The notes beneath the pieces are model-generated. The model saw only the letters and a list, made by a program, of their open reading frames with translations. It was not told the DNA's origin and did no database searches. From a virus (taxonomy: Duplodnaviria > Heunggongvirae > Uroviricota > Caudoviricetes), in IMG/VR virus record IMGVR_UViG_2740892258_000010: a DNA stretch of 21,071 nt; one strand, 5' to 3'. A program made the position numbers and the translations under genes. This document shows positions 1 to 13,810 of the stretch, piece by piece; within the stretch, counting starts at the first letter, position 1; each line of letters starts with the position of its first letter.

Positions 1-1143
1 CTATGCTGTTTTGATATCTACGATAATCCAGTCTTTACCACGATCATCATTGTATCGGTCGGTCATTTTTCTGGATTTATGGCCTAACAACTTTTGCGTA
101 TCCAGACCCTGTTCCCGATATAACCGTTCTGACAGAGATCGCTGCTCATGAAATGTGGGCGCAGTTCCTTGCTCCCATTTTATGCCACATTTTTCCCGGG
201 CCTTTTTAAAAGCCGTTGTCAGAGTATTCGCAGAAACCTGGTCTCCTCTGTTTGCTTGAGAGGTAGTGTGACGGTAATGGACCAGATATTTACTAACAAC
301 AGCATCCCTGCACTGAGATATAACTTCACGAAGGGTAATATTCAGAGCATCGCATTTCAGGTTAAGCGGAATAGCAAGTTTTGAACCGGTTTTTTCCTGA
401 GTAATGTGCAACATGTCGTCCCATATATCAGAGAATTTCAAATTGCAGATATCGCCTAAACGTTGTCCAGTAACAAGAGCAAGTAGCATGCCGCATTTTA
501 AATAGGGCTGCCGTCTGCTTACGCTGTCAAATATTGCCTGCCATTCGGGCAGTGACAATCTTTGGCGGTTTACTCGATTTCGCGGTTGTTTTGTTGCCTG
601 CGCTGGGTTAAATCCTGGCGGAACATGTCCTGCGTGTTGTGCTTCTTTGAAGACGTCGATCAACACCATTCTCACGACTTGCGCCATCCTGTTATGACCT
701 TCAGCCTTTACAGCATCAATTATTTCGGCAATATCAAGTGCGGTAATATCCTTGAGGTGTTGCATTCCACAATGCTCACGGAAAAGACGAATGGGTTTGC
801 CTTTTTGCCGATAGGAGTTGGGTCTTAGTTCATTATGTTGCAGCCTGTCCTCTTGGATAGAAATATATTTATCAAGCCATTCTGTCACCGTAATGTCTGA
901 GCGCCTGCCTTTCATTCTTTCCAGACGCTCATTGACGCTTAATATTTGTCTGGTACGTTGTTCAGCAATAATGGTATTTGCTTCAGTAGCAACTTGTTTT
1001 GCTTCATTCTCATCAGTTCCTAAGCTATGAAAACGACCGGATAGTGGATGTTTGTATTGCCAATATACCTTTCCGGTTCGCTTATCTAATTTGCAATATA
1101 AATTGGGTATAGAGATTTTGTGAGATCGGGGTCTAGCAGCCAT
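1..1143 (-). CDS. int: Phage integrase (tyrosine recombinase), lambda-Int-like architecture
   Basis: 380-aa ORF with C-terminal catalytic-region motifs (HEQRSLSERLY...LLGHKSRKMTDRY). Sequence is not lambda Int itself. Stop codon is at window positions 1-3, so the att site is outside the window. Confidence 0.9.
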   Translation of the reverse strand: MAARPRSHKISIPNLYCKLDKRTGKVYWQYKHPLSGRFHSLGTDENEAKQVATEANTIIAEQRTRQILSVNERLERMKGRRSDITVTEWLDKYISIQEDRLQHNELRPNSYRQKGKPIRLFREHCGMQHLKDITALDIAEIIDAVKAEGHNRMAQVVRMVLIDVFKEAQHAGHVPPGFNPAQATKQPRNRVNRQRLSLPEWQAIFDSVSRRQPYLKCGMLLALVTGQRLGDICNLKFSDIWDDMLHITQEKTGSKLAIPLNLKCDALNITLREVISQCRDAVVSKYLVHYRHTTSQANRGDQVSANTLTTAFKKAREKCGIKWEQGTAPTFHEQRSLSERLYREQGLDTQKLLGHKSRKMTDRYNDDRGKDWIIVDIKTA

Positions 1144-1369
1144 CAGCGATTATCCTTTGGAGTTTTGGGTTTGCGTTTATTGGGAGTTGCGGTTCTGCAA
1201 GCGTTCCTACAAAACGGGAATTTCGGTCAATCATCCAGTAGCGACCAACTTTTATAGCGGGTGGGGCCATCATTTTCCCTTGCGCGTATTTTTTCAGAAC
1301 TCGCTCACTTGGTGCTAAGTCCCCAAATTCTTCTTTAGCCCAGTCCTGTAAAGTGATTAGTCGAGACAT
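1133..1369 (-). CDS. xis: Excisionase (Xis-like)
   Basis: 78-aa ORF immediately upstream of int and overlapping its start by 11 nt. N-terminus (MSRLITLQDW) resembles the lambda Xis N-terminus (LTLQEW). Confidence 0.75.
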   Translation of the reverse strand: MSRLITLQDWAKEEFGDLAPSERVLKKYAQGKMMAPPAIKVGRYWMIDRNSRFVGTLAEPQLPINANPKLQRIIADGC

Positions 1370-1508
1370 TTGTCCTCCTCTTAGCTGCTGAGGGAGTTTG
1401 TGACCGATATATCTGACATGATATTAAGCTCATGGCAGGTACATCTCTTGACTGGTCATAGAGATAAATTTAATGCTGAGAAATGCAGTATTGAATTTAT
1501 CAATTTTT

Positions 1509-1748
1509 CTATTTCCTGCGCATGTCACGTAACTTCTTAATGTGTTCTGCCGTTTCGATCTCTTCTGCTATCCGATCTGCATCAGCTTTATTCACAGGTT
1601 CAAAGTCATGATTAAAGCGGAACATGCTGGCGATACATGTTCTGCCTTTTCGGATGTAGTGAACTTTGTTGTGGGTAGAACGCAGGATTTTGCAGGGAGT
1701 GCCGTGGTGGTCGACGTACCAGGTGTTAGGGTCAATCACTCTGAACAT
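1509..1748 (-). CDS. Hypothetical small early protein
   Basis: 79-aa ORF in the leftward early operon between xis and the lambda-type small ORFs. No motif recognised. Confidence 0.45.
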   Translation of the reverse strand: MFRVIDPNTWYVDHHGTPCKILRSTHNKVHYIRKGRTCIASMFRFNHDFEPVNKADADRIAEEIETAEHIKKLRDMRRK

Positions 1749-2061
1749 TCTTGACCTTGTGTTGTGCGGATTGATATTCAGTGCTGATATTCACCTTTAT
1801 AGCGAACACCTTTACCGGTTTATCGCCAAAGTGCGGATGTGTGATTGTCTTCACTTCATATCCGTCATACGGAACATCAATTCTGCGACTGGAATCGTCG
1901 CGCTTCGGATATCCCTTTGTGATAATCAGGCGGTCATATTCCCGGAACATAATTCGCTTATTCCAGTAGTCATTACACAAGCGATACTCTTCCGTTTTCT
2001 CTCCGCGAATCATGGCATCGAAGTATTCACTTTTAACAGCAAGTTGCAGGTTAGCCATCAC
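1732..2061 (-). CDS. Hypothetical protein, possible ASCH/PUA-like fold
   Basis: 109-aa ORF. N-terminal segment (LQLAVKSEYFDAMIRGEKTEEYRL) resembles the first strand/helix signature of ASCH-domain proteins. Assigned from memory of the family pattern only. Confidence 0.45.
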   Translation of the reverse strand: MMANLQLAVKSEYFDAMIRGEKTEEYRLCNDYWNKRIMFREYDRLIITKGYPKRDDSSRRIDVPYDGYEVKTITHPHFGDKPVKVFAIKVNISTEYQSAQHKVKNVQSD

Positions 2062-2279
2062 TTAATCCCCCTTTGTTTGCGGATAAGCTCCAGATCTTGC
2101 TGGCAACTGGCGCAAGTCCGACAACCCTGAACGGCCAGGCGTCTTCGTTCATCTATCGGATCGCCACACTCACAACAATGAGTGGCAGATACAGCCAGGT
2201 AGTTCAGGCGGCGCATTTTTATTGCTGTGTTGCGCTGTAATTCTTCTATTTCTGATGCTGAATCAATGATGTCTGCCAT
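2058..2279 (-). CDS. TraR/DksA-family C4 zinc-finger protein
   Basis: 73-aa ORF with a CxxC...17 aa...CxxC arrangement (CCECGDPIDERRRLAVQGCRTCASC), typical of phage/plasmid TraR-like proteins. Overlaps the upstream gene by 4 nt. Confidence 0.7.
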   Translation of the reverse strand: MADIIDSASEIEELQRNTAIKMRRLNYLAVSATHCCECGDPIDERRRLAVQGCRTCASCQQDLELIRKQRGIK

Positions 2280-2285
2280 CTTTCA

Positions 2286-2381
2286 TTAATCCCTGAACTG
2301 TTGGTTAATACGCTTGAGGGTGAATGCGAACAATAAAAAAGGAGCCTGTAGCTCCCTGATAATTTTGCTTTTCATGTTCAT
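2286..2381 (-). CDS. Possible 31-aa small protein (MNMKSKIIRELQAPFLLFAFTLKRINQQFRD)
   Basis: Below the 60-aa cutoff of the ORF track. ATG preceded by AAGGAA at good spacing; stop lies 7 nt upstream of the TraR-like start. Contains a GGAGC..GCTCC hairpin, so it could be structural RNA rather than coding. Confidence 0.25.
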   Translation of the reverse strand: MNMKSKIIRELQAPFLLFAFTLKRINQQFRD

Positions 2382-2472
2382 CGTTCCTTAAAGACGCCGT
2401 TTAACATGCCGATTGCCAGGCTTAAATGAGTCGGTGTGAATCCCTTCAGCGTTACCGTTTCGCGGTGCTTCT

Positions 2473-2655
2473 TCAGTACGCTACGGCAAATGTCATTGAC
2501 GTTTTTGGAAACTGCTGTCTGACTTTTTTGATTTCAGAATTAGCCTGACGGGCAATGCTGCGAAGGGCGTTTTCTTGCTGAGGTGTCACTGAACAAGCCC
2601 CATGTCGGCAAGCATAAGCACACAGAATATGAAGCCCGCTGCCAGAAAAATGCAT
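2473..2655 (-). CDS. Lambda-type small early protein (orf61 equivalent)
   Basis: 60-aa ORF at the position and orientation of the lambda orf61/orf63/orf60a cluster upstream of exo. Identity by recollection and synteny. Confidence 0.5.
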   Translation of the reverse strand: MHFSGSGLHILCAYACRHGACSVTPQQENALRSIARQANSEIKKVRQQFPKTSMTFAVAY

Positions 2656-2665
2656 TCAGTGGTTG

Positions 2666-2857
2666 TCATACCTGGTCTCTCTCATCTGCTTCTGCTTTCG
2701 CCACCATCATTTCCAGCTTTTGTGAAAGGGATGTGGCTAACGTATGAAATTCTTCGTCTGTTTCTGCTGGTATTGGCACAAACCTGACTCCAATTTGAGC
2801 AAGGCTATGTGCCAAATCAATACTCGTTCTTAACTCAACAGGAGATGCTTTGTGCAT
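2666..2857 (-). CDS. Lambda-type small early protein (orf63 equivalent)
   Basis: 63-aa ORF ([26 protein letters not shown]...) in the lambda orf63 position. Overlaps the next ORF as in lambda. Confidence 0.55.
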   Translation of the reverse strand: MHKASPVELRTSIDLAHSLAQIGVRFVPIPAETDEEFHTLATSLSQKLEMMVAKAEADERDQV

Positions 2858-3012
2858 ACCGCCCCCCGTTTATTATTTATCTCCTCAGCCAGCCGCTGGG
2901 CTTTCAGCGGATTTCGGATAACAGAAAGACCGTGAAATACCCAGCCTCGCTTTGTAACGGAGTAGACGAAAGTGATCGCGCCTACCCGGATATTATCGTG
3001 AGGATGGGTCAT
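2830..3012 (-). CDS. Lambda-type small early protein (orf60a equivalent)
   Basis: ORF track gives 62 aa (2830..3018); the start at the second Met gives 60 aa ([11 protein letters not shown]...). Lies immediately upstream of exo. Confidence 0.55.
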
Positions 3013-3689
3013 CGCCATTGCTCTCCAAATACAAAACCAATTTCAGCCAGTGCTTCGTCCATTTTTTCGATGAACTCCGGCACCATCTCGTCAAAACTCG
3101 CCATGTACTTTTCATCCCGCTCAACCACGACATAATGCAGGCCTTCACGCTTCATTCGTGGGTCATAGTTGGCAAAGTACCAGGCATCTTTTCGTGTCAC
3201 CCACATGCTGTACTGCACCTGGGCCATGTAAGCCGACTTTATGGCCTCGAAACCACCGAGCCGGAACTTCATGAAATCCCGGGAGGTAAACGGGCATTTC
3301 AGCTCAAGGCCATTGCCGTCACTGCATAAACCATCGGGAGAGCAGGCGGTGCGCATACTTTCGTCGCGATAGATGATCGGGGATTCAGTAACATTCACGC
3401 CGGAAGTGAATTCAAACAGGGTTCTGGCGTCGTTCTCGTACTGTTTTCCCCACGCCAGCGCCTTAGCATTAACTTCCGGAGCCACACCGGTGCAAACCTC
3501 AGCCAGCAGGGTGTGGAAGTAGGACATTTTCATGTCAGGCCACTTCTTTCCTGAGCGGGGCTTTGCTATCACGTTGTGAACTTCTGAAGCGGTGATGACG
3601 CCGAGCCGTAATTTGTGCCATGCATCATCCCCCTGTTCGACAGCTCTCACGTCGATCCCGGTACGCTGCAGGATAATGTCCGGTGTCAT
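3009..3689 (-). CDS. exo: Lambda exonuclease (Red-alpha)
   Basis: 226-aa translation matches lambda Exo essentially end to end ([40 protein letters not shown]...GFVFGEQWR). 4-nt overlap with bet. Confidence 0.95.
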
Positions 3690-4471
3690 GCTGCCACCTT
3701 CTGCTCAGTGGCTTTCTGTTTCAGGAATCCAAGAGCTTTCACTGCTTCGGCCTGTGTCAGTTCTGACGATGCGCGAATGTCGCGGCGAAATATCTGGGAA
3801 CAGAGCGGCAATAAGTCGTCATCCCATGTTTTGTCCAGGGCAATCAGCAGAGTGTTAATCTCCTGCATGGTTTCATCGTTAACCGGAGTGATGTCGCGTT
3901 CCGGCTGACGTTCTGCAGTGTATGCGGTATTTTCGACAATGCGCTCGGCTTCATCCTTGTCATAGATACCAGCAAATCCGAAGGCCAGACGGGCACACTG
4001 AATCATGGCTTTATGCCGTAACATCCGTTTGGGATGCGACTGCCACGGCCCCGTGATTTCTCTGCCTTCGCGGGTTTTGAATGGTTCGCGGCGGCATTCA
4101 TCCATCCACTCGGTAACGCAGATCGGATGATTGCGGTCTTTGCGGTAAATCCGGCATGTACATGATTCATTGTCCTGCTCAAAGTCCATACCATCAAACT
4201 GCTGGTTTTCATTGATGATGCGGGACCAGCCATCAACGCCCACCACCGGAACAATGCCGTTCTGCTTATCAGGGAAGGCGTAAATTTCTTTCGTCCACGG
4301 ATTAAGGCCGTACTGGTTGGCGACGATCAACAATGCGATGAACTGCGCATCGCTGGCATCACCTTTAAATGCCGTCTGGCGAAGAGTGGTGATCAGTTCC
4401 TGTGGGTCGACAGAATCCATGCCGACACGTTCAGCCAGCTTCCCTGCCAGCGTTGCGAGTGCTGTACTCAT
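3686..4471 (-). CDS. bet: Recombination protein Bet (Red-beta)
   Basis: 261-aa translation matches lambda Bet ([66 protein letters not shown]...). Confidence 0.95.
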
Positions 4472-4476
4472 CCGTT

Positions 4477-4773
4477 TTATACCTCTGAATCAATATCAGC
4501 CTGATGGTGAGCAATGGTTTCAACTATGTACCGGATGTGTTCTGCCATGCGCTCCTGAAACTCAACATCGTCATCAAACGCACGGGTAATGGCTTTTTTG
4601 CTGGCCCCGTGGCGTTGTAAATGATCGATGCATAGCGATTCAAACAGGTGCTGGGGCAGGCCTTTTTCCATGTCGTCTGCCAGTTCTGCCTCTTTCTCTT
4701 CACGGGCGATCTGCTGGTAGTGACGCGCCCAGCTCTGAGCCTCAAGACGATCCTGAATGTAATAAGCGTTCAT
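4477..4773 (-). CDS. gam: Gam, RecBCD inhibitor (98-aa short form only)
   Basis: 98-aa ORF matches the lambda Gam core ([21 protein letters not shown]...DIDSEV). The upstream ATG that gives the 138-aa form in lambda ([10 protein letters not shown]...) is at 4892-4894 but is out of frame with the core here. Confidence 0.9.
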
Positions 4774-4848
4774 GGCTGAACTCCTGAAAATGGCTGTGAA
4801 AATATCGCCCGCGAAATGCCAGGCTGATTAGGAAAACAGGAAAGGGGG

Positions 4849-4992
4849 TTAGTGAATGCTTTTGCTTGATCTCAGTTTCAGTATTAATATCCATTTTTTA
4901 TAAGCGTCGACGGCCTCACGAAACATCTTTTCATCGCCAATAAAAGTGGCGATAGTGAATTTAGTCTGGATAGCCATAATTGTTTGATCCAT
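4849..4992 (-). CDS. kil: Kil (host-killing/FtsZ-inhibiting protein)
   Basis: Last 47 codons of the 89-aa ORF 4849..5118 read [47 protein letters not shown], which is lambda Kil with one substitution. Start taken at this Met. Confidence 0.85.
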
Positions 4993-5125
4993 TTTTTGGG
5001 ACTCCTGGCTGATTAAGTATGTCGATAAGGCGTTTCCATCCGTCACGTAATTTACGGGTGATTCGTTCAAGTAAAGATTCGGAAGGGCAGCCAGCAACAG
5101 GCCACCCTGCAATGGCATATTGCAT
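4961..5125 (-). CDS. cIII: CIII (FtsH inhibitor, stabiliser of CII)
   Basis: Not in the ORF track (54 aa). Manual translation gives [54 protein letters not shown], matching lambda CIII. 3' end overlaps the kil start as in lambda. Confidence 0.85.
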   Translation of the reverse strand: MQYAIAGWPVAGCPSESLLERITRKLRDGWKRLIDILNQPGVPKNGSNNYGYPD

Positions 5126-5197
5126 GGTGTGCTCCTTATTTATACATAACGAAAAACGCCTCGAGTGAAGCGTAATTGGTATGCGGTAACGCCGCGC

Positions 5198-5566
5198 TCA
5201 GGCGGCCTTGATAGTCATATCATCTGAATCAAATATTCCTGATGTATCGATATCGGTAATTCTTATTCCTTCACTACCATCCATTGGAGGCCATCCTTCC
5301 TGACCATTTCCATCATTCCAGTCGAACTCACACACAACACCATATGCATTTAAGTCGCTTGAAATTGCTATAAGCAGAGCATGTTGCGCCAGCATGATTA
5401 ATACAGCATTTAATACAGAGCCGTGTTTATTGAGTCGGTATTCAGAGTCTGACCAGAAATTATTAATCTGGTGAAGTTTTTCCTCTGTCATTACGTCATG
5501 GTCAATTTCAATTTCTATTGATGCTTTCCAGTCGTAATCAATGATGTATTTTTTGATGTTTGACAT
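5198..5566 (-). CDS. ea10: Ea10-like early protein
   Basis: 122-aa ORF between cIII and ral, the position of lambda ea10. Identity by synteny and recollection. Confidence 0.6.
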   Translation of the reverse strand: MSNIKKYIIDYDWKASIEIEIDHDVMTEEKLHQINNFWSDSEYRLNKHGSVLNAVLIMLAQHALLIAISSDLNAYGVVCEFDWNDGNGQEGWPPMDGSEGIRITDIDTSGIFDSDDMTIKAA

Positions 5567-5586
5567 CTATTCATATCCTCATAGAT

Positions 5587-5612
5587 AAAAAATCGCCCTC
5601 ACACTGGAGGGC
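5587..5612 (-). terminator. Intrinsic terminator between ral and ea10 (leftward transcript)
   Basis: On the minus strand: GCCCTC-cagtgt-GAGGGC stem-loop (plus coordinates 5595-5612) followed by a T6 run (plus-strand A-run 5587-5592). Confidence 0.6.
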
Positions 5613-5748
5613 AAAGAAGATTTCCAATAATCAGAACAAGTCGGCTCCTGTTTAGTTACGAGCGACATTGCTCCGTGTATTCACTCGTTGGAATGAATAC
5701 ACAGTGCAGTGTTTATTCTGTTATTTATGCCAAAAATAAAGGCCACTA

Positions 5749-5949
5749 TCAGGCAGCTTTGTTGTTCTGTTTACCAAGTTCTCTGGCAATCATTGCCGTC
5801 GTTCGTATTGCCCATTTATCGACATATTTCCCATCTTCCATTACAGGAAACATTTCTTCAGGCTTAACCATGCATTCCGATTGCAGCTTGCATCCATTGC
5901 ATCGTTTGAATTGTCCACACCATTGATTTGTATCAATAGTCGTAGTCAT
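5749..5949 (-). CDS. ral: Ral, restriction-alleviation protein
   Basis: 66-aa translation (MTTTIDTNQWCGQFKRCNGCKLQSECMVKPEEMFPVMEDGKYVDKWAIRTTAMIARELGKQNNKAA) matches lambda Ral. Confidence 0.9.
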   Translation of the reverse strand: MTTTIDTNQWCGQFKRCNGCKLQSECMVKPEEMFPVMEDGKYVDKWAIRTTAMIARELGKQNNKAA

Positions 5950-6019
5950 ACGGATAGTCCTGGTATTGTTCCATCACATCTTGAGGATGCTCTTCGAACT
6001 CTTCAAATTCTTCTTCCAT
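5933..6019 (-). CDS. Small acidic protein, lambda orf28 equivalent
   Basis: Not in the ORF track. Manual translation gives MEEEFEEFEEHPQDVMEQYQDYPYDYDY (28 aa). Overlaps the ral start by 17 nt. Confidence 0.55.
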   Translation of the reverse strand: MEEEFEEFEEHPQDVMEQYQDYPYDYDY

Positions 6020-6162
6020 ATATCACCTTAAATAGTGGATTGCGGTAGTAAAGATTGTGCCTGTCTTTTAACCACATCAGGCTCGGTGGTTCTCGTGTAC
6101 CCCTACAACGAGAAATCGGATAAACTCTATTCACCCCTACAGAGAGCAAAAGAGAAACGCCG

Positions 6163-6744
6163 ATGAACAACTCATGGTGGCAGGAACTAATGCATTTTTT
6201 CCTGCAAGGAATGACACTTAAACAGTTGATTCATATGCTAATCATCCTGATCATATTGATTATTGTTATGCCGGTAAGCGTAAAAGAATGGATAAACCTG
6301 CATAATCCAGAAATCCTTCCTCATTACTGGATGTATTACATCCTGTTGTTTTGCGTTAGCTATGTGCTTAACGGCGTTGTTAATTCCGCTTATCACGCTG
6401 TGACTGAAAGAATTGAGGTATTCGCTGCTCAGAAGCGCAAATCTAAAGAAGAAAAATATGTGCAAGATTTGTTTGATTCGTTAACTCTTGGAGAAAGAGC
6501 GTATTTGGCATTCGCTGTAGCCGCTAATAACCAGCTACAAACGGAAAAGGGCGCTCATGAATCAATTTCATTGCTCAAAAAAGGACTCCTCGTTCGAAGG
6601 CCTCCTGCTGTTGGATATCCTGATACCGACCGTTTCGTTATCCCTGAAAGCTATAGACATGAGTGCTACATTAGGTTTGCCGGGAAGGCAGACAGCCTTA
6701 TGGATGAACTTATCGCTCAGGATAAGCATGGCAAAAACAAGTAA
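6163..6744 (+). CDS. sieB: Superinfection exclusion protein B
   Basis: 193-aa ORF with a hydrophobic N-terminal region (MLIILIILIIVMPV..., YILLFCVSYVLNGVV...). Matches lambda SieB by recollection. Convergent with N. Confidence 0.85.
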   Translation: MNNSWWQELMHFFLQGMTLKQLIHMLIILIILIIVMPVSVKEWINLHNPEILPHYWMYYILLFCVSYVLNGVVNSAYHAVTERIEVFAAQKRKSKEEKYVQDLFDSLTLGERAYLAFAVAANNQLQTEKGAHESISLLKKGLLVRRPPAVGYPDTDRFVIPESYRHECYIRFAGKADSLMDELIAQDKHGKNK

Positions 6745-6760
6745 TTAGCAAATGAATTTA

Positions 6761-7033
6761 TCATCTCGCCGTCAGTTGTTTTGATTTCCGGTAGCCTGCC
6801 GCGTAAAGAGCTACGTTCGGAAGACAAGTTGAACCTTCATATTTTCTGGTCAACGTTGTCAGAGTTATCACTTCTGCTCTCATTGCTGGTTTGAGCTTGC
6901 ATTGCAAGACCACTCGTGAAGGGGTTGGCCTGTGTAGCTTGTCGGAGCTGATCGCCTCCTGACTTTGCAGATTTGCGCGACGAGCTCTACGGCGAGAAGC
7001 TGCGGTGCCTTTAAATTCTGTTTTTCTGGACAT
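6761..7033 (-). CDS. N: N-type transcription antiterminator (P22/21-like, not lambda N)
   Basis: Start placed at the internal Met (MSRKTEFKGTAASRRRARRA...), which has a GGAGG ribosome-binding site; the ORF track extends 24 codons further upstream. Arginine-rich motif near the N-terminus. C-terminus (NVALYAAGYRKSKQLTAR) resembles the P22 gene-24 antiterminator. Confidence 0.75.
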   Translation of the reverse strand: MSRKTEFKGTAASRRRARRANLQSQEAISSDKLHRPTPSRVVLQCKLKPAMRAEVITLTTLTRKYEGSTCLPNVALYAAGYRKSKQLTAR

Positions 7034-7131
7034 GGATTCCTCCCGAATAAACTTTGGCGATGCAATCTCGAAGCTCCTCCTGAGACGGTTGCTTCGGCAT
7101 TGCATCCCACAGCTTATGTGGTTGGGTGATC

Positions 7132-7177
7132 TGGCTTTTCAGCCACGTAGTCGAGAGTCGACGTTGTTTAAAGAGCC
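7132..7177 (-). promoter_or_regulatory. Putative nutL (boxA plus boxB hairpin)
   Basis: Minus strand reads GGCTCTTT (boxA-like) ... CTACG-TGGCT-GAAA-AGCCA (boxB-like stem-loop). It aligns almost base for base with the site downstream of cro at 9813-9858. Confidence 0.5.
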
Positions 7178-7222
7178 TGCCAGTCTGTTCCATTTGGCTT
7201 CCAGCGTCCTGCTGACGGTTAA

Positions 7223-7251
7223 ATAGTACGATATGTACTTTACAAGATCAA
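7223..7251 (-). promoter_or_regulatory. Putative pL with overlapping operator
   Basis: Minus strand: TTGATC, 17-nt spacer, TACTAT. The spacer contains AAAGTACATAT, the same 11-mer found in the spacer of the putative pR. Confidence 0.45.
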
Positions 7252-7440
7252 TACAATTTGTTGTAAGTTGGCGTGGTTTTTTATAACGCTTTGTATTTAA
7301 TAGTGTTGTTTTTTAGCGTGGATGTATTGCCTCGGCGATGTAAGGAGAGATCAGAATTGCGTGGTTTAGTGGGTTGCATCTATTTATTTTTCAATAAATA
7401 TAATTGGTTATGTGTTTTTAGGTGGGCGAACGTGAGGCAA

Positions 7441-7464
7441 AGAAAACCCGGCGCTGAGGCCGGG
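7441..7464 (-). terminator. Intrinsic terminator ending the cI operon
   Basis: Minus strand: CCCGGC-ctcagc-GCCGGG stem-loop followed by TTTTCT, beginning 5 nt after the stop of the 250-aa gene. Confidence 0.65.
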
Positions 7465-7469
7465 TTGTA

Positions 7470-8222
7470 TTATGCTGCAAGTCTCTTAACCCAAGTCTCT
7501 CTTTTGGAGAATGGTAGAACTTGGCTTGATTCATGGAAGAGTAAGGAGAGTTGTTGCATTTGATCACCAATTGCTTCGCTGTCTATAACAACAAATCTGT
7601 TGTTATACTCCTCACTTGAAGCTTTAAGATCAATTAGTTTCCCAAGCAATGAGTAAGCACTATTCCAGCTTCCTCCGTGTTTCACGCTTGATGTAAAAAC
7701 GTATTTAGGTATGTCGGTTTTTATTGTTACAGGGACGGTAATTTGATGTCCACTCAAGCCATATACGTTTTCACGAAGAGAAAGTGCGTCTCTAAGCTCT
7801 GTGTGATATAGATAATCAATAACCATACTTTCAAACTTTTCAGCTTGAACTGGCTGATACCAGTCTAACGACAAAGTTGATGCGAGTATACCAGCTCTAA
7901 TTATGTTCGATGTAATCGCACCGACATCCTTTTCTGTTGCCCAAGCAATGATTTCTCCTCGAGCATTGAGTTCTGCGCCTTCTTTAAGCAGTAATTGTCG
8001 TATCTCATCAAGTCGTTTTTTGGTAAGCGAGATCCCTCTTGCCTCCATATTCATTAAGGCATCGCATCTGTCACTAACTAAATACCTACCATTGACTTCA
8101 CGGATAAAGGCACCGACATGCTCTCCATCATCACAGTAAGTGAATGGACTGATAATTCTCAAGGTCTTGCCTATTGGATGGCATTCGAAACCTAGTTGTG
8201 AGATCACTGTTGAGCACATCAT
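7470..8222 (-). CDS. Unknown protein B of the cI-linked two-gene cassette (candidate exclusion/defence component)
   Basis: 250-aa ORF. No recognisable motif and no obvious transmembrane segment. Start ATG overlaps the stop of the upstream gene (ATGA). Visibly AT-rich compared with the flanking lambda genes. Confidence 0.7.
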   Translation of the reverse strand: MMCSTVISQLGFECHPIGKTLRIISPFTYCDDGEHVGAFIREVNGRYLVSDRCDALMNMEARGISLTKKRLDEIRQLLLKEGAELNARGEIIAWATEKDVGAITSNIIRAGILASTLSLDWYQPVQAEKFESMVIDYLYHTELRDALSLRENVYGLSGHQITVPVTIKTDIPKYVFTSSVKHGGSWNSAYSLLGKLIDLKASSEEYNNRFVVIDSEAIGDQMQQLSLLFHESSQVLPFSKRETWVKRLAA

Positions 8223-8776
8223 ATTCCAAACCCCATTTGCCCCGACTCATCTTCAAGCGGTAAAGGTATTCTCCCAGAGTAAGTTATGTTCAGATGTTTA
8301 CAGAAGTAATTCCAATACCCTACCAGGTCATCTGGGTTTATGTCATCTTCGATTGGAAACGCTATTCTATCACTATAGTATCCAGCTTCTTCATAGTATA
8401 CATGGTAGTGAGCACCGTAAATGATATCTTGGTACTTCGGATGATCGACCTTGTAACTATTCGTGTGTTTGTCAAAGTGATAGGTATCTACCGCGAAAAC
8501 CCTCTTGTTATGATAGAAAGCAATAATATTTATTTTAGGGTAAGAAATCGGGTCATCAGGTTCTGAATCCTGATCTGGTTTCCATTTCAGTTCAAACTTT
8601 AGCCCTTGTATAGGTATACAATCCTCATCCAAGGGGATGATATGGGCTTGTAGCCACATATCAGAGCGACTTGGTTTCTGTTTCCATTTAACGCCAGAAA
8701 AGTTAACTATTTTTTTACAATAAAGTACTTTATCAACTTCTACTTGGCTTGGCTGATAATCATCTATTTTTGCCAA
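8219..8776 (-). CDS. Unknown protein A of the cI-linked two-gene cassette (candidate exclusion/defence component)
   Basis: 185-aa ORF starting 39 nt after the cI stop with no intervening terminator. The annotated start is TTG; the first in-frame ATG is at codon 40, so the true start is uncertain. Tyr/His/Asp-rich; no motif recognised. Confidence 0.6.
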   Translation of the reverse strand: MAKIDDYQPSQVEVDKVLYCKKIVNFSGVKWKQKPSRSDMWLQAHIIPLDEDCIPIQGLKFELKWKPDQDSEPDDPISYPKINIIAFYHNKRVFAVDTYHFDKHTNSYKVDHPKYQDIIYGAHYHVYYEEAGYYSDRIAFPIEDDINPDDLVGYWNYFCKHLNITYSGRIPLPLEDESGQMGFGI

Positions 8777-8815
8777 TGTTTACCGCCCTGTAAATTGTAG
8801 ATAAAAGTGGTTTCA

Positions 8816-9475
8816 TCACCCAAACGTCTCTTCAGGCCATTGGCTGGCGATAACTTTCCCCACAACGGAACAACTCTCATTGCATGGGATCATTGGGTAT
8901 TGTGGGTTTAGTGGCTGTAGAAACACCTGACCGCTATCCCTGATCAGTTTCTTGAAGGTAAATTCATCACCACCAAGTCTGGCTATGCAGAAATCGCCGG
9001 GCTCAACAGCTTGCTCAGGGTCAACCAGAATTAACATCCCGTCAGGAAAGCTGGGTTTGGAACCTGTTGGTGCGGTCATTGAGTTACCTTCAACCTCAAG
9101 CCAGAATGCAGAGTCACTGGCTTTTTTGGTTGTGCTTACCAATCTCTCCGCATCGCCTTTGGTAAAGGTTCTGAGTTCTGGAGAGAACATCCCAGCCTGA
9201 ACATGAGAAAAAACAGGGTACTCATATTGTTTTTTAACTGGGGCCGATGAGTATTCGCCAACAGGTGAAAATGTCCCGTCGTGGTTGAATGATATGTTAT
9301 CAATACCAAGGTATTTAAACACCACACCAATATCACTAAGAGATGGATGACGAGATCCGCGCAACCAGTGTCCAATCCCACCCTGCGTCATACCTAGCTC
9401 TTCGGCTAACTTCTCTTGAGTTATGCCGAGCTCTTTCATTCTGGATCTAGCCAGTTCATACCATTTCATTTTCAT
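8816..9475 (-). CDS. cI: CI-type prophage repressor (HTH plus S24 LexA-like autocleavage domain)
   Basis: N-terminal HTH ([20 protein letters not shown]). C-terminal domain has a Gly-Asn-Ser-Met segment and a downstream FKKL lysine consistent with the Ser/Lys dyad. Divergent from cro. Start ambiguous among 9517, 9475 and 9469. Confidence 0.85.
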
Positions 9476-9530
9476 GTCCTTATTATTACGCTCTGTACTG
9501 GAACCATCCATGCACAATGTGTATTTTTAC

Positions 9531-9559
9531 TTGTATTCGCAAAGTACATATTGTATTTT
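9531..9559 (+). promoter_or_regulatory. Putative pR with overlapping operator
   Basis: TTGTAT, 17-nt spacer, TATTTT. The spacer contains AAAGTACATAT (9541-9551), identical to the pL spacer motif. TGTATT recurs three times across 9520-9557. Confidence 0.4.
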
Positions 9560-9586
9560 TTTATTCGTGTTTACTATGGAGGGCAT

Positions 9587-9802
9587 ATGAGCAACCTACG
9601 AAAATATCGAGAGTCACTGAATATCTCTCAAACAACACTTGCTAAGGCAGTTGGATGCACACAGGGAGCTATCGGACATTGGGAATCTGGTCGTCGCTTC
9701 CCAGACCTTAAAACATGCCGTGCTCTTGTTGCGTGCCTAAACAAGTTAGGCGCAAAAGTCAGTCTTGATGACGTGTTCCCGCCGGAACACAAAGCCGCTT
9801 AA
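9587..9802 (+). CDS. cro: Cro-type repressor (HTH)
   Basis: 71-aa protein (MSNLRKYRESLNISQTTLAKAVGCTQGAIGHWESGRRF...) with GGAGGG 4 nt upstream of the ATG. Divergent from cI. The ORF track extends it artificially to 9416. Confidence 0.8.
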   Translation: MSNLRKYRESLNISQTTLAKAVGCTQGAIGHWESGRRFPDLKTCRALVACLNKLGAKVSLDDVFPPEHKAA

Positions 9803-9812
9803 TAAGCGGATC

Positions 9813-9858
9813 CGCTCTTTGTAACAACGGACATTCGTCCTACGTCGCTGAAAAGCGA
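9813..9858 (+). promoter_or_regulatory. Putative nutR (boxA plus boxB hairpin)
   Basis: CGCTCTTT (boxA-like) ... CTACG-TCGCT-GAAA-AGCGA (boxB-like), just downstream of cro. Same spacing and loop as the nutL candidate. Confidence 0.5.
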
Positions 9859-9943
9859 GTTCCAAGATATCTGACCAACTAAGGCCATATGCGTTTCCAC
9901 GCATACCTTTCAACTAACTATTCACTATTGGAAATCTTAAGAA

Positions 9944-10240
9944 ATGGAAAGAACAAGTTACAGCAAACTATCACAGCGTGACGTTGATCGCGCAGAAACA
10001 GATTTACTTATCAATCTGTCAGCTATTACCCAGCGCGGTCTGGCAAAGATGATTGGCTGTCATGAATCGAAGATAAGCAGAACGGACTGGAGATTTATTG
10101 CTTCGGTCTTGTGTGCTTTCGGAATGGCATCAGACATCAGTCCGATTAGCAGGGCTTTTAAGTATGCGCTTGATGGACTCACCAATAAAAAACGCCCGGC
10201 GGCAACCGAGCGTTCTGAACAAATCCAGATGGAATTCTGA
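9944..10240 (+). CDS. cII: CII transcriptional activator (hybrid: non-lambda N-terminus, lambda C-terminus)
   Basis: 98-aa ORF. The last ~19 residues (LTNKKRPAATERSEQIQMEF) match lambda CII; the N-terminal two thirds do not. Confidence 0.85.
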   Translation: MERTSYSKLSQRDVDRAETDLLINLSAITQRGLAKMIGCHESKISRTDWRFIASVLCAFGMASDISPISRAFKYALDGLTNKKRPAATERSEQIQMEF

Positions 10241-10272
10241 GGTCATTACTGGATCAATCCACAGGAGTCATT

Positions 10273-11177
10273 ATGACAAATACAGCAAAAATACTCAACT
10301 TCTGCAGAGGTAACTTTGCCAAACAGGAGCGTAATGTGGCAGATCTCGATGATGGTTACGCCAGACTATCAAATATGCTGCTTGAGGCTTATTCAGGCGC
10401 AGATCTGACCAAGCGACAGTTTAAAGTGCTGCTTGCCATTCTGCGTAAAACCTATGGATGGAATAAACCAATGGACAGAATCACCGATTCTCAACTTAGC
10501 GAGATTACAAAGTTACCCGTCAAACGGTGCAATGAAGCCAAGTTAGAACTCGTCAGAATGAATATTATCAAGCAGCAAGGCGGCATGTTTGGACCAAATA
10601 AAAACATCTCAGAATGGTGTATCCCTCAAAACGAGGGAAAATCCCCTAAAACAATAAAAACATCTCAGAATGGTGTATCCCTCAAAACGAGGGAAAATCC
10701 CCTAAAACGAGGGATAAAACATCCCTCAAATTGGGGGATTGCTATCCCTCAAAACAGGGGGACACAAAAGACACTATTACAAAAGAAAAAAGAAAAGATT
10801 ATTCGTCAGAGAATTCTGGCGAATCCTCTGACCAGCCAGAAAACGACCTTTCTGTGGTGAAACCGGATGCTGCAATTCAGAGCGGCAGCAAGTGGGGGAC
10901 AGCAGAAGACCTGACCGCCGCAGAATGGATGTTTGACATGGTGAAGACCATCGCGCCATCAGCCAGAAAACCGAATTTTGCAGGGTGGGCTAACGATATC
11001 CGCCTGATGCGTGAACGTGACGGACGTAACCATCGCGACATGTGTGTACTGTTCCGCTGGGCATGCCAGGACAACTTCTGGTCCGGTAACGTGCTGAGCC
11101 CGGCCAAACTCCGCGACAAGTGGACCCAGCTCGAAATCAACCGTAACAAGCAACAGGCAGGCTTTAGCTTAATTTAA
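10273..11177 (+). pseudogene. O: Replication initiator O, frameshifted in the ori iterons and altered at the C-terminus
   Basis: N-terminal ORF (10273..10860) and C-terminal ORF (10731..11177) both match lambda O but are in different frames. The frame change coincides with a 56-bp tandem duplication. The C-terminus ends ...NRNKQQAGFSLI instead of continuing as in lambda. Confidence 0.85.
10597..10708. repeat. Perfect 56-bp tandem duplication within the ori iteron array
   Basis: 10597-10652 and 10653-10708 are identical by direct reading (aataaaaacatctcagaatggtgtatccctcaaaacgagggaaaatcccctaaaac). 56 is not a multiple of 3. Confidence 0.9.
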
Positions 11178-12439: not shown

Positions 12440-13087
12440 TCATTCTCATTGTTGCTATATCAGCCATCACTGAAAGCCTCAACGCATAATCGGCTGCTTA
12501 GGATAGCCAACCTCAGGTGCTGCATTTGCATAGTGCAATCTCCCCTTACTTATCCGGAGGCAATTGCAATATCTCTGTGAACTTACACTGTGTATCATCA
12601 GGTTATTATGTGAGCTGGTAAATCAGATTTTGCATGGACTGAAATGATGCTGTTATTTAGGGACAAAGAACCGACTTTTTCTCTTGCCTCCTCGCCAGTA
12701 ATGATTAATGGGAATGCTTCCTCTGGGGAGGAGGACAGTAGAAAAAAGAACCCGCCAGCAAAAATATTGGGGATGAACAGCTTTCGCTACTCAGGTTGTT
12801 GGCGGGTAAATTTCCTCATGAAATAAGAATGCTACGCGCTCTTTTTAATGAAAATGATAATCACTGTCAACTAATTGCGCATATTTTCTTCATACATGAT
12901 TGATAAAGGTGATTCAGACTATCAGTGTTTTGCTGATGGCCTTTTTGTCTTTAGAAAACACCAGCCAGGCTGGTTGGTTCAGTTAAGCTTTCAGCTTCGA
13001 GAATTTTATGAAAGCTATTGATTTGTTAAAATAAATCACAGTCTGGTGACTGCAAAAGTTAAACGAGAAATCAAAAGGTGGCCCAAA

Positions 13088-13341: not shown

Positions 13342-13635
13342 CTATTGTGAGCAATATACCCGGGCTTCCAGCGGAGTATAGATGCCAAAAGTGATAAAAC
13401 CGAGCAATCCATTTACGAATGTTTGCTGAGTTTCTGTTTTAACAACATTTTCTGCACCGCCACAAATTTTGGCTGCATCAACAGTTTTCTCTTGTCCAAT
13501 TCCCGAAACGAAGAAATGATGAGTGATGGTTTCCTTTGGTGTTACTGCTGTCGGTTTGTTTCCAACAGTAAACGTCTGTTGAGCACATCCTGTAATAAGC
13601 ATTGCCAGAGCGGCAGAAAATAACATTTTTTTCAT
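13342..13635 (-). CDS. bor: Bor lipoprotein (serum-resistance, lysogenic conversion)
   Basis: 97-aa protein from the second Met (MKKMLFSAALAMLITGCAQQTFTV...ARVYCSQ) with a lipobox (LITGC). Matches lambda Bor. The ORF track starts 5 codons earlier. Confidence 0.9.
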   Translation of the reverse strand: MKKMLFSAALAMLITGCAQQTFTVGNKPTAVTPKETITHHFFVSGIGQEKTVDAAKICGGAENVVKTETQQTFVNGLLGFITFGIYTPLEARVYCSQ

Positions 13636-13810
13636 CTTATTATCCTGCATTGTTAAAAACGGCAGAATCCTATGTGATAATAATTAAACGATAGCTAAAT
13701 GAACGAAAATTAAAAGTATAAAAGTGGTTACTCAGACTTGGTTGATCCTACCCACGTAATATGGACACAGGCCTAAGCGAGGTTCTTGTTTTCAAATTGT
13801 TCCGGACTGA

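Follow-up and report, generated by a model that had tools for sequence, protein, structure and literature searches.

We analysed the early regulatory region carried at positions 6745 to 10,240 of IMG/VR virus record IMGVR_UViG_2740892258_000010, a 21,071-nt stretch of Caudoviricetes DNA (the window). The region contains divergent cI and cro genes with a multi-site operator between them, an N gene with nut sites, and a cII gene with pRE and the antisense oop gene, the full set expected of a lambdoid early regulatory region. A preliminary description made from the letters alone had read about 6750–10200 as an immunity region of another lambdoid type swapped into a lambda background, with a left junction in the 16-bp gap between the convergent sieB and N genes and a right junction inside cII. 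Our comparisons with lambda, phage 21, VT2-Sakai, HK022, HK97, P22, lambda imm434, 2G7b, 2B8 and Lambda_2E9 make it very probable that the interval comes from a natural lambda/21-like temperate prophage, of which it forms the early regulatory region, a patchwork of independently assorting modules.

Early genes and immunity type

The N antiterminator gene (6761–7033, minus strand; Pfam N_peptide, 1.5e-32) is of the type found in the Shiga toxin (Stx) phage VT2-Sakai (Sp5, AP000422). Its product differs from VT2-Sakai N at 1 of 90 residues and aligns weakly with lambda N (E = 8e-4). The nut sites were read from the sequence. nutL (7132–7176, minus strand) comprises boxB TGGCT-GAAA-AGCCA at 7132–7145 and boxA GCTCTTTAAACAA at 7164–7176, and nutR (9813–9858, plus strand), which coincides with the annotated VT2-Sakai nutR, comprises boxA CGCTCTTTGTAACAA at 9813–9827 and boxB TCGCT-GAAA-AGCGA at 9845–9858; both boxB hairpins have a 5-bp stem and a GAAA loop. 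Between boxA-L and the pL start (7150–7224) the DNA is 88% identical to phage 21, whereas the flanking N, boxB and operators are not 21-type.

Operator-like sites were recognised by their palindrome pattern. Two of them, AGTACGATATGTACT (7225–7239) and AATACAATTTGTTGT (7250–7264), overlap pL and make up the putative OL (7225–7264). The 111-bp region between cI and cro contains pRM, pR and three palindromic sites (9485–9499, 9511–9525 and 9543–9557) that make up the putative OR (9485–9557); each is identical to VT2-Sakai at 15 of 15 positions. The window contains 18 matches to the palindrome AGTACA-N3-TGTACT, where chance predicts 6.5; the closest of them, with one or two mismatches, lie in OL (7225), in OR (9485 and 9543) and at 13582. 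The lambda operator consensus TATCACCGC-GGTGATA has no match with up to three mismatches in 6700–10300. The neighbouring cro gene (9587–9802, plus strand; Pfam HTH_3) encodes a protein that matches VT2-Sakai Cro at all 72 residues and gives no alignment with lambda Cro. The non-lambda character that the preliminary description gave to N, the nut sites, the operators and cro is thus borne out.

The cI repressor gene (8816–9475, minus strand; Pfam HTH_3 and Peptidase_S24; alternative start upstream at 9511) is itself composite. Its product differs from the VT2-Sakai repressor at 1 of 220 residues, located in the C-terminal domain. The N-terminal DNA-binding domain (9227–9475) is of VT2-Sakai type; the C-terminal domain (8816–9226) is lambda-like, with a single amino acid substitution. 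The two parts meet near lambda cI residue 101, in the linker that precedes the RecA cleavage site. The earlier assignment of cI to a different lambdoid type therefore stands for the N-terminal domain, which is foreign to lambda, and fails for the C-terminal domain, which is 93.4% identical to lambda at the nucleotide level.

The start codon of cI is ambiguous within 9469–9511: PhiR63_2 is annotated with the ATG at 9511, which overlaps the OR sites, and VT2-Sakai with the one at 9469. A leaderless pRM transcript, such as lambda has, would be compatible with the ATG at 9475 (MKMKWY…).

At the nucleotide level the window matches VT2-Sakai at 93% over 6761–7467 and at 96.6% over 8818–10280, and the repressor, Cro and operator sequences are all of the VT2-Sakai type. 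Judged by these alignments, the immunity determinants (N, nutL, OL, the cI DNA-binding domain, OR, cro, nutR, and the cII body with pRE) are those of VT2-Sakai. VT2-Sakai and related Stx1 and Stx2 phages share with the window N, nutL and OL (93%), cI, OR, Cro, nutR and the cII body (94%). Unlike the window, VT2-Sakai lacks sieB, carries other genes in the rex slot, and continues from an HK022-type cII tail into orf48, an HK022-type O and DnaB-type replication, where the window has a lambda-type tail and O. Because the immunity is of VT2-Sakai type, this prophage, which is common in extraintestinal pathogenic Escherichia coli, is predicted from the sequence to share immunity with O157 Stx phages.

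Five other immunity types were compared with the window and set aside, because N, OL, the cI N-terminal domain, OR and cro have no nucleotide similarity to them. For lambda, the cI N-terminal domain is diverged, Cro cannot be aligned and the operator consensus is absent. A blastn search of 6044–9911 against phage 21 returns only the 75-nt boxA-L/pL patch and two weak cI matches; imm434 and P22 give only weak matches of 26–100 nt in the cI C-terminal domain; and the nucleotide match to HK022 starts only at 9916, in cII. HK97 is of lambda type, judged by the sizes of its cI and cro genes and its lambda-like cI C-terminal domain.

Lambda-like blocks, module boundaries and relatives

Lambda-like sequence is not confined to the arms. 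A blastn comparison with lambda yields four lambda-like blocks in and around the interval, the stretches between them having no nucleotide similarity to lambda: the left arm from orf61 to exo-bet-gam-kil-cIII-ea10-ral (2068–6142, minus strand; 97.2%), of which phage 21 shares the part within 1–6043; the t_imm region (7345–7466, minus strand; 90% to lambda 35708–35826); the cI C-terminal domain (8815–9226, minus strand; 93.4%); and the cII tail, oop and O (10178–11162; 98% with a duplication in O set aside). The preliminary description was right that a non-lambda immunity region lies between lambda-like arms. Its single foreign block and single swap do not accommodate the t_imm and cI patches within that region, the cassette in the rexAB slot, or the at least six boundaries against lambda. 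As the four blocks stand at 97%, 90%, 93% and 98% identity, they point to several events of different age. The lambda immunity region has the same gene order and logic as the window, and its cI C-terminal domain, t_imm, oop/tO, cII tail and O are near-identical; sieB, N, the nut sites, the operators, the cI DNA-binding domain, cro and the cII body differ, and rexAB is replaced in the window.

The left boundary depends on the phage used for comparison. Homology to lambda fades over 6127–6142, some 20–35 nt upstream of the sieB start codon. sieB itself (6163–6744, plus strand; Pfam SieB, 2.5e-22), previously described as lambda-type, is a P22-type allele: it is 88% identical to P22 sieB/esc and 94% identical to its counterpart in the wild phage Lambda_2E9 at the nucleotide level, has no nucleotide match in lambda, and encodes a protein with 18% identity to lambda SieB (E = 0.61). 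It is part of neither the lambda arm nor the VT2-Sakai block. The 16-bp gap between sieB and N is a breakpoint only against VT2-Sakai and 2B8, both of which lack sieB and whose homology starts at 6759–6761. Against P22, Lambda_2E9 and HK97, homology crosses this gap and runs to about 6826; the last 66 nt of N (6761–6826) are common to P22 gene 24, HK97 N and Lambda_2E9, and the rest of N is not. N thus holds a third intragenic module boundary near 6826, its C-terminal end being conserved across types. Farther left, the lambda arm has kept the cIII thermoregulator RNA element (5080–5138, minus strand; Rfam RF01804, 88.5 bits).

The backbone, by the same kind of comparison, is as much phage 21 as lambda. 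Positions 1–6043, including int and xis, are 97.6% identical to phage 21 (blastn), and lambda has no match at int/xis; the lysis genes (holin and endolysin) are 21-type, and homology to phage 21 resumes over 9912–11162 (91%) so as to include the whole cII body. Up to 11.1 kb the window is collinear with Escherichia phage PhiR63_2, the sole difference being a 56-bp duplication, and beyond that point large parts of the PhiR63_2 genome are skipped. With the duplication set aside, 6000–11161 is identical in ev207 and PhiR63_2 and near-identical in ev017 and PhiR57_1 (INPHARED phage collection). These four phages and the prophage of UTI89, IHE3034 and NU14 share both the exact cII and the cargo cassette with the window. 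Among 5,426 complete E. coli genomes, 237 cover at least 80% of 6143–10280, many at about 100% identity. The region is therefore an established haplotype and not a novel recombinant of this window. A literature search on ev017, ev207, 2G7b and ECOR13 found nothing usable.

These observations bear directly on the possibility that lambda underwent one immunity replacement with two junctions, in the sieB/N gap and in cII, which left a new hybrid cII specific to the window. The non-lambda core does have lambda-like flanks, and the cII junction lies where it had been placed. A single replacement nevertheless conflicts with a P22-type sieB and a lambda homology that ends at 6142, with two internal lambda-like patches of unequal divergence, and with int, xis and lysis genes of 21-type. 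It also conflicts with the recurrence of the arrangement in the four phages and the 237 genomes, and with the presence of the same body-plus-tail CII in about 70 of the 80 closest IMG/VR loci; the 90–98% spread of block identities speaks against all carriers descending from this prophage after a recent event. The preliminary description had itself named collinearity with a single known phage, exact cII included, as telling against its swap, and ev207, PhiR63_2, ev017 and PhiR57_1 all show it. We regard a single replacement as highly improbable.

The cII junction and the assortment of modules

The cII gene (9944–10240, plus strand) encodes a member of the lambda CII family (Pfam Phage_CII, PF05269, 7e-34 over residues 1–92; 9e-10 to the solved lambda CII, PDB 1xwr/1zpq). 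In a five-way alignment its identity to lambda steps from 98 of 234 positions (42%) over 9944–10177 to 62 of 63 (98%) over 10178–10240. The body (codons 1–78) is of the 21/HK022/VT2-Sakai type, 92–94% identical to those three phages, and the tail (codons 79/80–98) is of lambda type, its last 20 residues LTNKKRPAATERSEQIQMEF being those of lambda CII. This agrees with the right junction as first described, within cII and with the last 19 or so residues lambda. The crossover narrows to CTCAC at 10178–10182: in a table of informative sites the last base discordant with lambda is 10177 and the first lambda-specific base 10183.

A step in identity could also arise if no recombination had occurred in cII and its 3' end were held constant by a double constraint, on the CII tail and on the antisense OOP RNA. 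The 3' segment does carry two overlapping functions (PMC3349717), and lambdoid phages vary less in it than lambda and the 21-type phages do in the cII body. Conservation, however, predicts uniform similarity to all types, and the tails instead fall into discrete types (lambda, 21 and HK022/VT2-Sakai), the window's tail being 98% identical to lambda, 89% to phage 21 and 75% to VT2-Sakai and HK022. The same cro and cII-body types also carry either tail. Since the nearest relative switches between body and tail, the step fits exchange better than mere conservation, and an origin of the pattern by constraint is very unlikely.

The crossover lies at the edge of the oop gene (10184–10298, minus strand). 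A promoter-like site (10298..10270), a transcript of about 10262..10184 and a tO stem (10216..10189) followed by a T-run were assigned by promoter and terminator scanning, folding and identity to lambda, because an Rfam scan of the whole window matched no oop or nut family; its matches were the cIII thermoregulator and STnc490. The 79-nt stretch folds at −28.4 kcal/mol (z = −3.1) and is 98% identical to lambda over the cII overlap (10178–10240). The crossover is 2–6 nt beyond the predicted oop 3' end at 10184. In lambda, the overlap of cII with oop takes in 55 nt of cII, stop codon included (PMC3349717); transferred to the window, it puts the oop 3' end at about 10186 and the crossover immediately beyond it. 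The last 17 residues of CII are dispensable for activity but required for OOP control (PMC3349717), and the C-terminal 16 residues constitute the FtsH degradation signal, with CII1-87 able to complement and CII1-77 not (PMC5869508). The crossover thus also coincides with the beginning of the FtsH degradation tail, at which the portion of CII required for activation stops. The only mildly novel point about this junction is how close, to a few bases, the crossover comes to the oop 3' end.

Three bases in the lambda-type oop block (10234, 10256 and 10260) match HK022 and VT2-Sakai, and not lambda or phage 21. They represent either a micro-mosaic or an ancestral polymorphism.

The hybrid CII is likely to function normally, since a single parent supplied its helix-turn-helix, tetramerisation core and target site, and the other parent contributed only the oop-pairing tail. 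The target is a TTGC-N6-TTGY pRE site located within the 5' end of cII itself and belonging to one block with the CII body: the CII-binding repeat TTGCTGTAACTTGT of the pRE −35 region (9953–9966, minus strand) occupies +10 to +23 of cII, the offset annotated in phage 21. The presence of an identical cII gene in four INPHARED phage genomes agrees with a functional hybrid. A search of the window for TTGY-N6-TTGY, the pattern of pI- and paQ-type promoters, found no sites other than pRE and a single one in the tail-fibre region, a number below chance expectation; paQ is deleted in the window.

Comparable junctions are known from laboratory hybrids. As in the window, a 21-type cII body is joined to lambda-type oop and O in the lambda imm21 hybrid and in phage 21, the boundary falling inside the cII/oop overlap or beside it; the imm21 hybrids are viable, and their cII sequence is altered to the left of oop (PMC3349717). 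In phage 21 the tail (…KKKRPVCKTERSEQIQMEF) still departs from lambda inside the tO loop, which places the switch point some 25 nt to the right of the window's. At the nucleotide level, imm21 and the window have unrelated N, cI, cro and operators. In the lambda–P22 hybrid hy106 the crossover is in the oop promoter pO (PMC3349717), on the other side of oop from the tO-side crossover of the window; what the two have in common is a short oop block that serves as a recombination linker between the immunity and replication modules. The oop block thus behaves like a short linker flanked by crossover zones, exemplified by imm21 on the tO side and hy106 on the pO side.

Independent assortment is also evident in 160 sampled IMG/VR loci; the loci were not dereplicated, and their counts are descriptive only. 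A first sample was biased to lambda-type tails by the choice of query, and a second was drawn with VT2-Sakai CII. Over 157 IMG/VR loci, the window's cro type occurs with a lambda-type CII tail in 39 (40 with the window itself) and with an HK022-type tail in 31, and 13 cro types share its cII body. Lambda tails accompany a lambda-type O in 39 cases and an orf48-type arrangement in 5; HK022 tails do so in 14 and 52, respectively. An initial assignment of the cII tail and oop strictly to the replication module was softened in view of these numbers: the association is strong but not absolute. The cargo between t_imm and the cI stop codon is all that distinguishes 2G7b from the window, and 2B8 departs from it only in lacking sieB and carrying other cargo, which shows that modules exchange between close relatives.

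In the modular reading that we favour, the interval would comprise a P22-type sieB, the N–nutL–OL block, a conserved t_imm flank, an exchangeable cargo slot at the rexAB position, the lambda-like cI C-terminal domain, a block of cI N-terminal domain, cro and cII body, the oop/cII-tail block, and the lambda-type O replication module. Its boundaries would fall at places that leave hybrids functional: the ends of genes, the flexible linker of cI and the 3' end of antisense oop. The junctions may have formed by homologous or divergence-tolerant Red-type recombination within short conserved stretches, presumably in several events that long predate the window. Red-type recombinases form mosaics from diverged homology, as was demonstrated experimentally for lambda (PMC3945230), and exo and bet are present in the window.

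Several considerations weigh against this reading or limit it. The operator and promoter assignments are pattern-based, and the functions of CII, cI and the operators are predicted ones. The recombination mechanism and the direction of transfer are reconstructed from present-day sequences. Because the linkage between tail and replication type is partial, the oop block is a small independent module in its own right. Finally, the IMG/VR and genome counts are uncorrected for clonal redundancy, and ST95-like relatives such as UTI89, IHE3034 and NU14 make up many of the genomes.

The mosaic is an instance of classic lambdoid modular mosaicism, already known, and the cII junction is real and of a long-known kind. 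The region provides a clean worked example of rules that go back to heteroduplex mapping and to the modular theory of how lambdoid phages evolve: modules meet at the ends of genes, in linkers between domains and in short conserved sequences such as oop. For annotation, the immunity region is to be recorded as VT2-Sakai-type, sieB as P22-type and the prophage copy as defective.

The rex-slot cassette and prophage decay

The t_imm patch (7345–7466, minus strand), with a t_imm terminator stem at 7466..7445 by terminator scan, forms the left conserved flank of the rex slot. These 122 bp are common to lambda, VT2-Sakai, HK97 and the window; at 7467 the window, lambda and VT2-Sakai part from one another, and the rex-slot cargo differs in 2G7b, 2B8, VT2-Sakai and lambda. 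In the window the position of rexB and rexA is taken by a two-gene cassette (7470–8776, minus strand) of open reading frames ORF250 (7470–8222) and ORF185 (8219–8776), which overlap by 4 nt. As the cassette lies between cI and t_imm, it is presumably co-transcribed with cI in the lysogen, like rexAB. It has no nucleotide similarity to lambda rexAB and no match to a Rex family, so that its resemblance to RexAB is one of position only and, presumably, of co-transcription with cI.

PADLOC returned weak to moderate matches of the cassette to the defence candidates PDC-M24A (4.8e-4) and PDC-M24B (4.7e-10), and Pfam a match to DUF1828. ORF250 combines the DUF1828 domain with a restriction-endonuclease-like fold, and its residues H159, K173 and D198 are conserved. 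An alignment of homologues contains no invariant acidic residues in the core strands, which leaves nuclease activity unproven. ORF185 is beta-rich and has no informative structural neighbour, and NCBIfam and PDB sequence searches with the cargo proteins found no match. Homologues with 47–84% identity occur across Enterobacterales and in Aeromonas. In all nine loci examined in Salmonella, Klebsiella and Aeromonas the pair follows a prophage repressor gene, whatever the repressor type or the neighbouring modules. A literature search found no paper on the PDC-M24/DUF1828 family as rex-slot exclusion or defence genes.

A defence function for the cassette is plausible. We suggest tentatively that it is an uncharacterised exclusion or abortive-infection system of lysogens, exchanged by recombination in the flanking t_imm and cI C-terminal-domain sequences. 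It is the most interesting by-product of the analysis and a reasonable candidate phage-defence system.

The O gene (10273–11177, plus strand), of lambda/21 type, is inactivated. A perfect 56-bp tandem duplication in its ori iteron region (10597–10708), absent from PhiR63_2, shifts the frame and yields open reading frames at 10273–10860 and 10731–11177, and the gene is cut at 11161/11162. This is the first of the deletion junctions relative to PhiR63_2; the others lie at 13738/13844, 15610, 16962 and 17267. P, ren, the nin region, Q and most head and tail genes are missing. Full-length copies of about 41 kb are present in UTI89, IHE3034, NU14 and about 170 further complete E. coli genomes, and in contrast to these and to ev207, ev017, PhiR63_2 and PhiR57_1 (41–50 kb), the window copy has several large deletions and the O duplication. 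The window is thus a decayed copy of a common lambda/21-like temperate prophage, the 21-kb remnant of a 41–48-kb prophage that is intact in UTI89, IHE3034 and NU14.

So compact a copy, 21 kb with many deletions against relatives of 41–48 kb, might raise the suspicion of an assembly chimera, a laboratory lambda hybrid or a vector. Its junctions, however, are reproduced to the base in phages and complete genomes that were sequenced independently, vector sequence is absent, and the deletions, the insertion in Rz and the 56-bp duplication in O are typical of prophage decay; an artefact is extremely improbable.

The insertion that interrupts Rz (12440–13084, about 645 bp) has no match in the phage collection. 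Within it, 12956–13077 matches Rfam STnc490 (90.8 bits), an IS200-associated small RNA.

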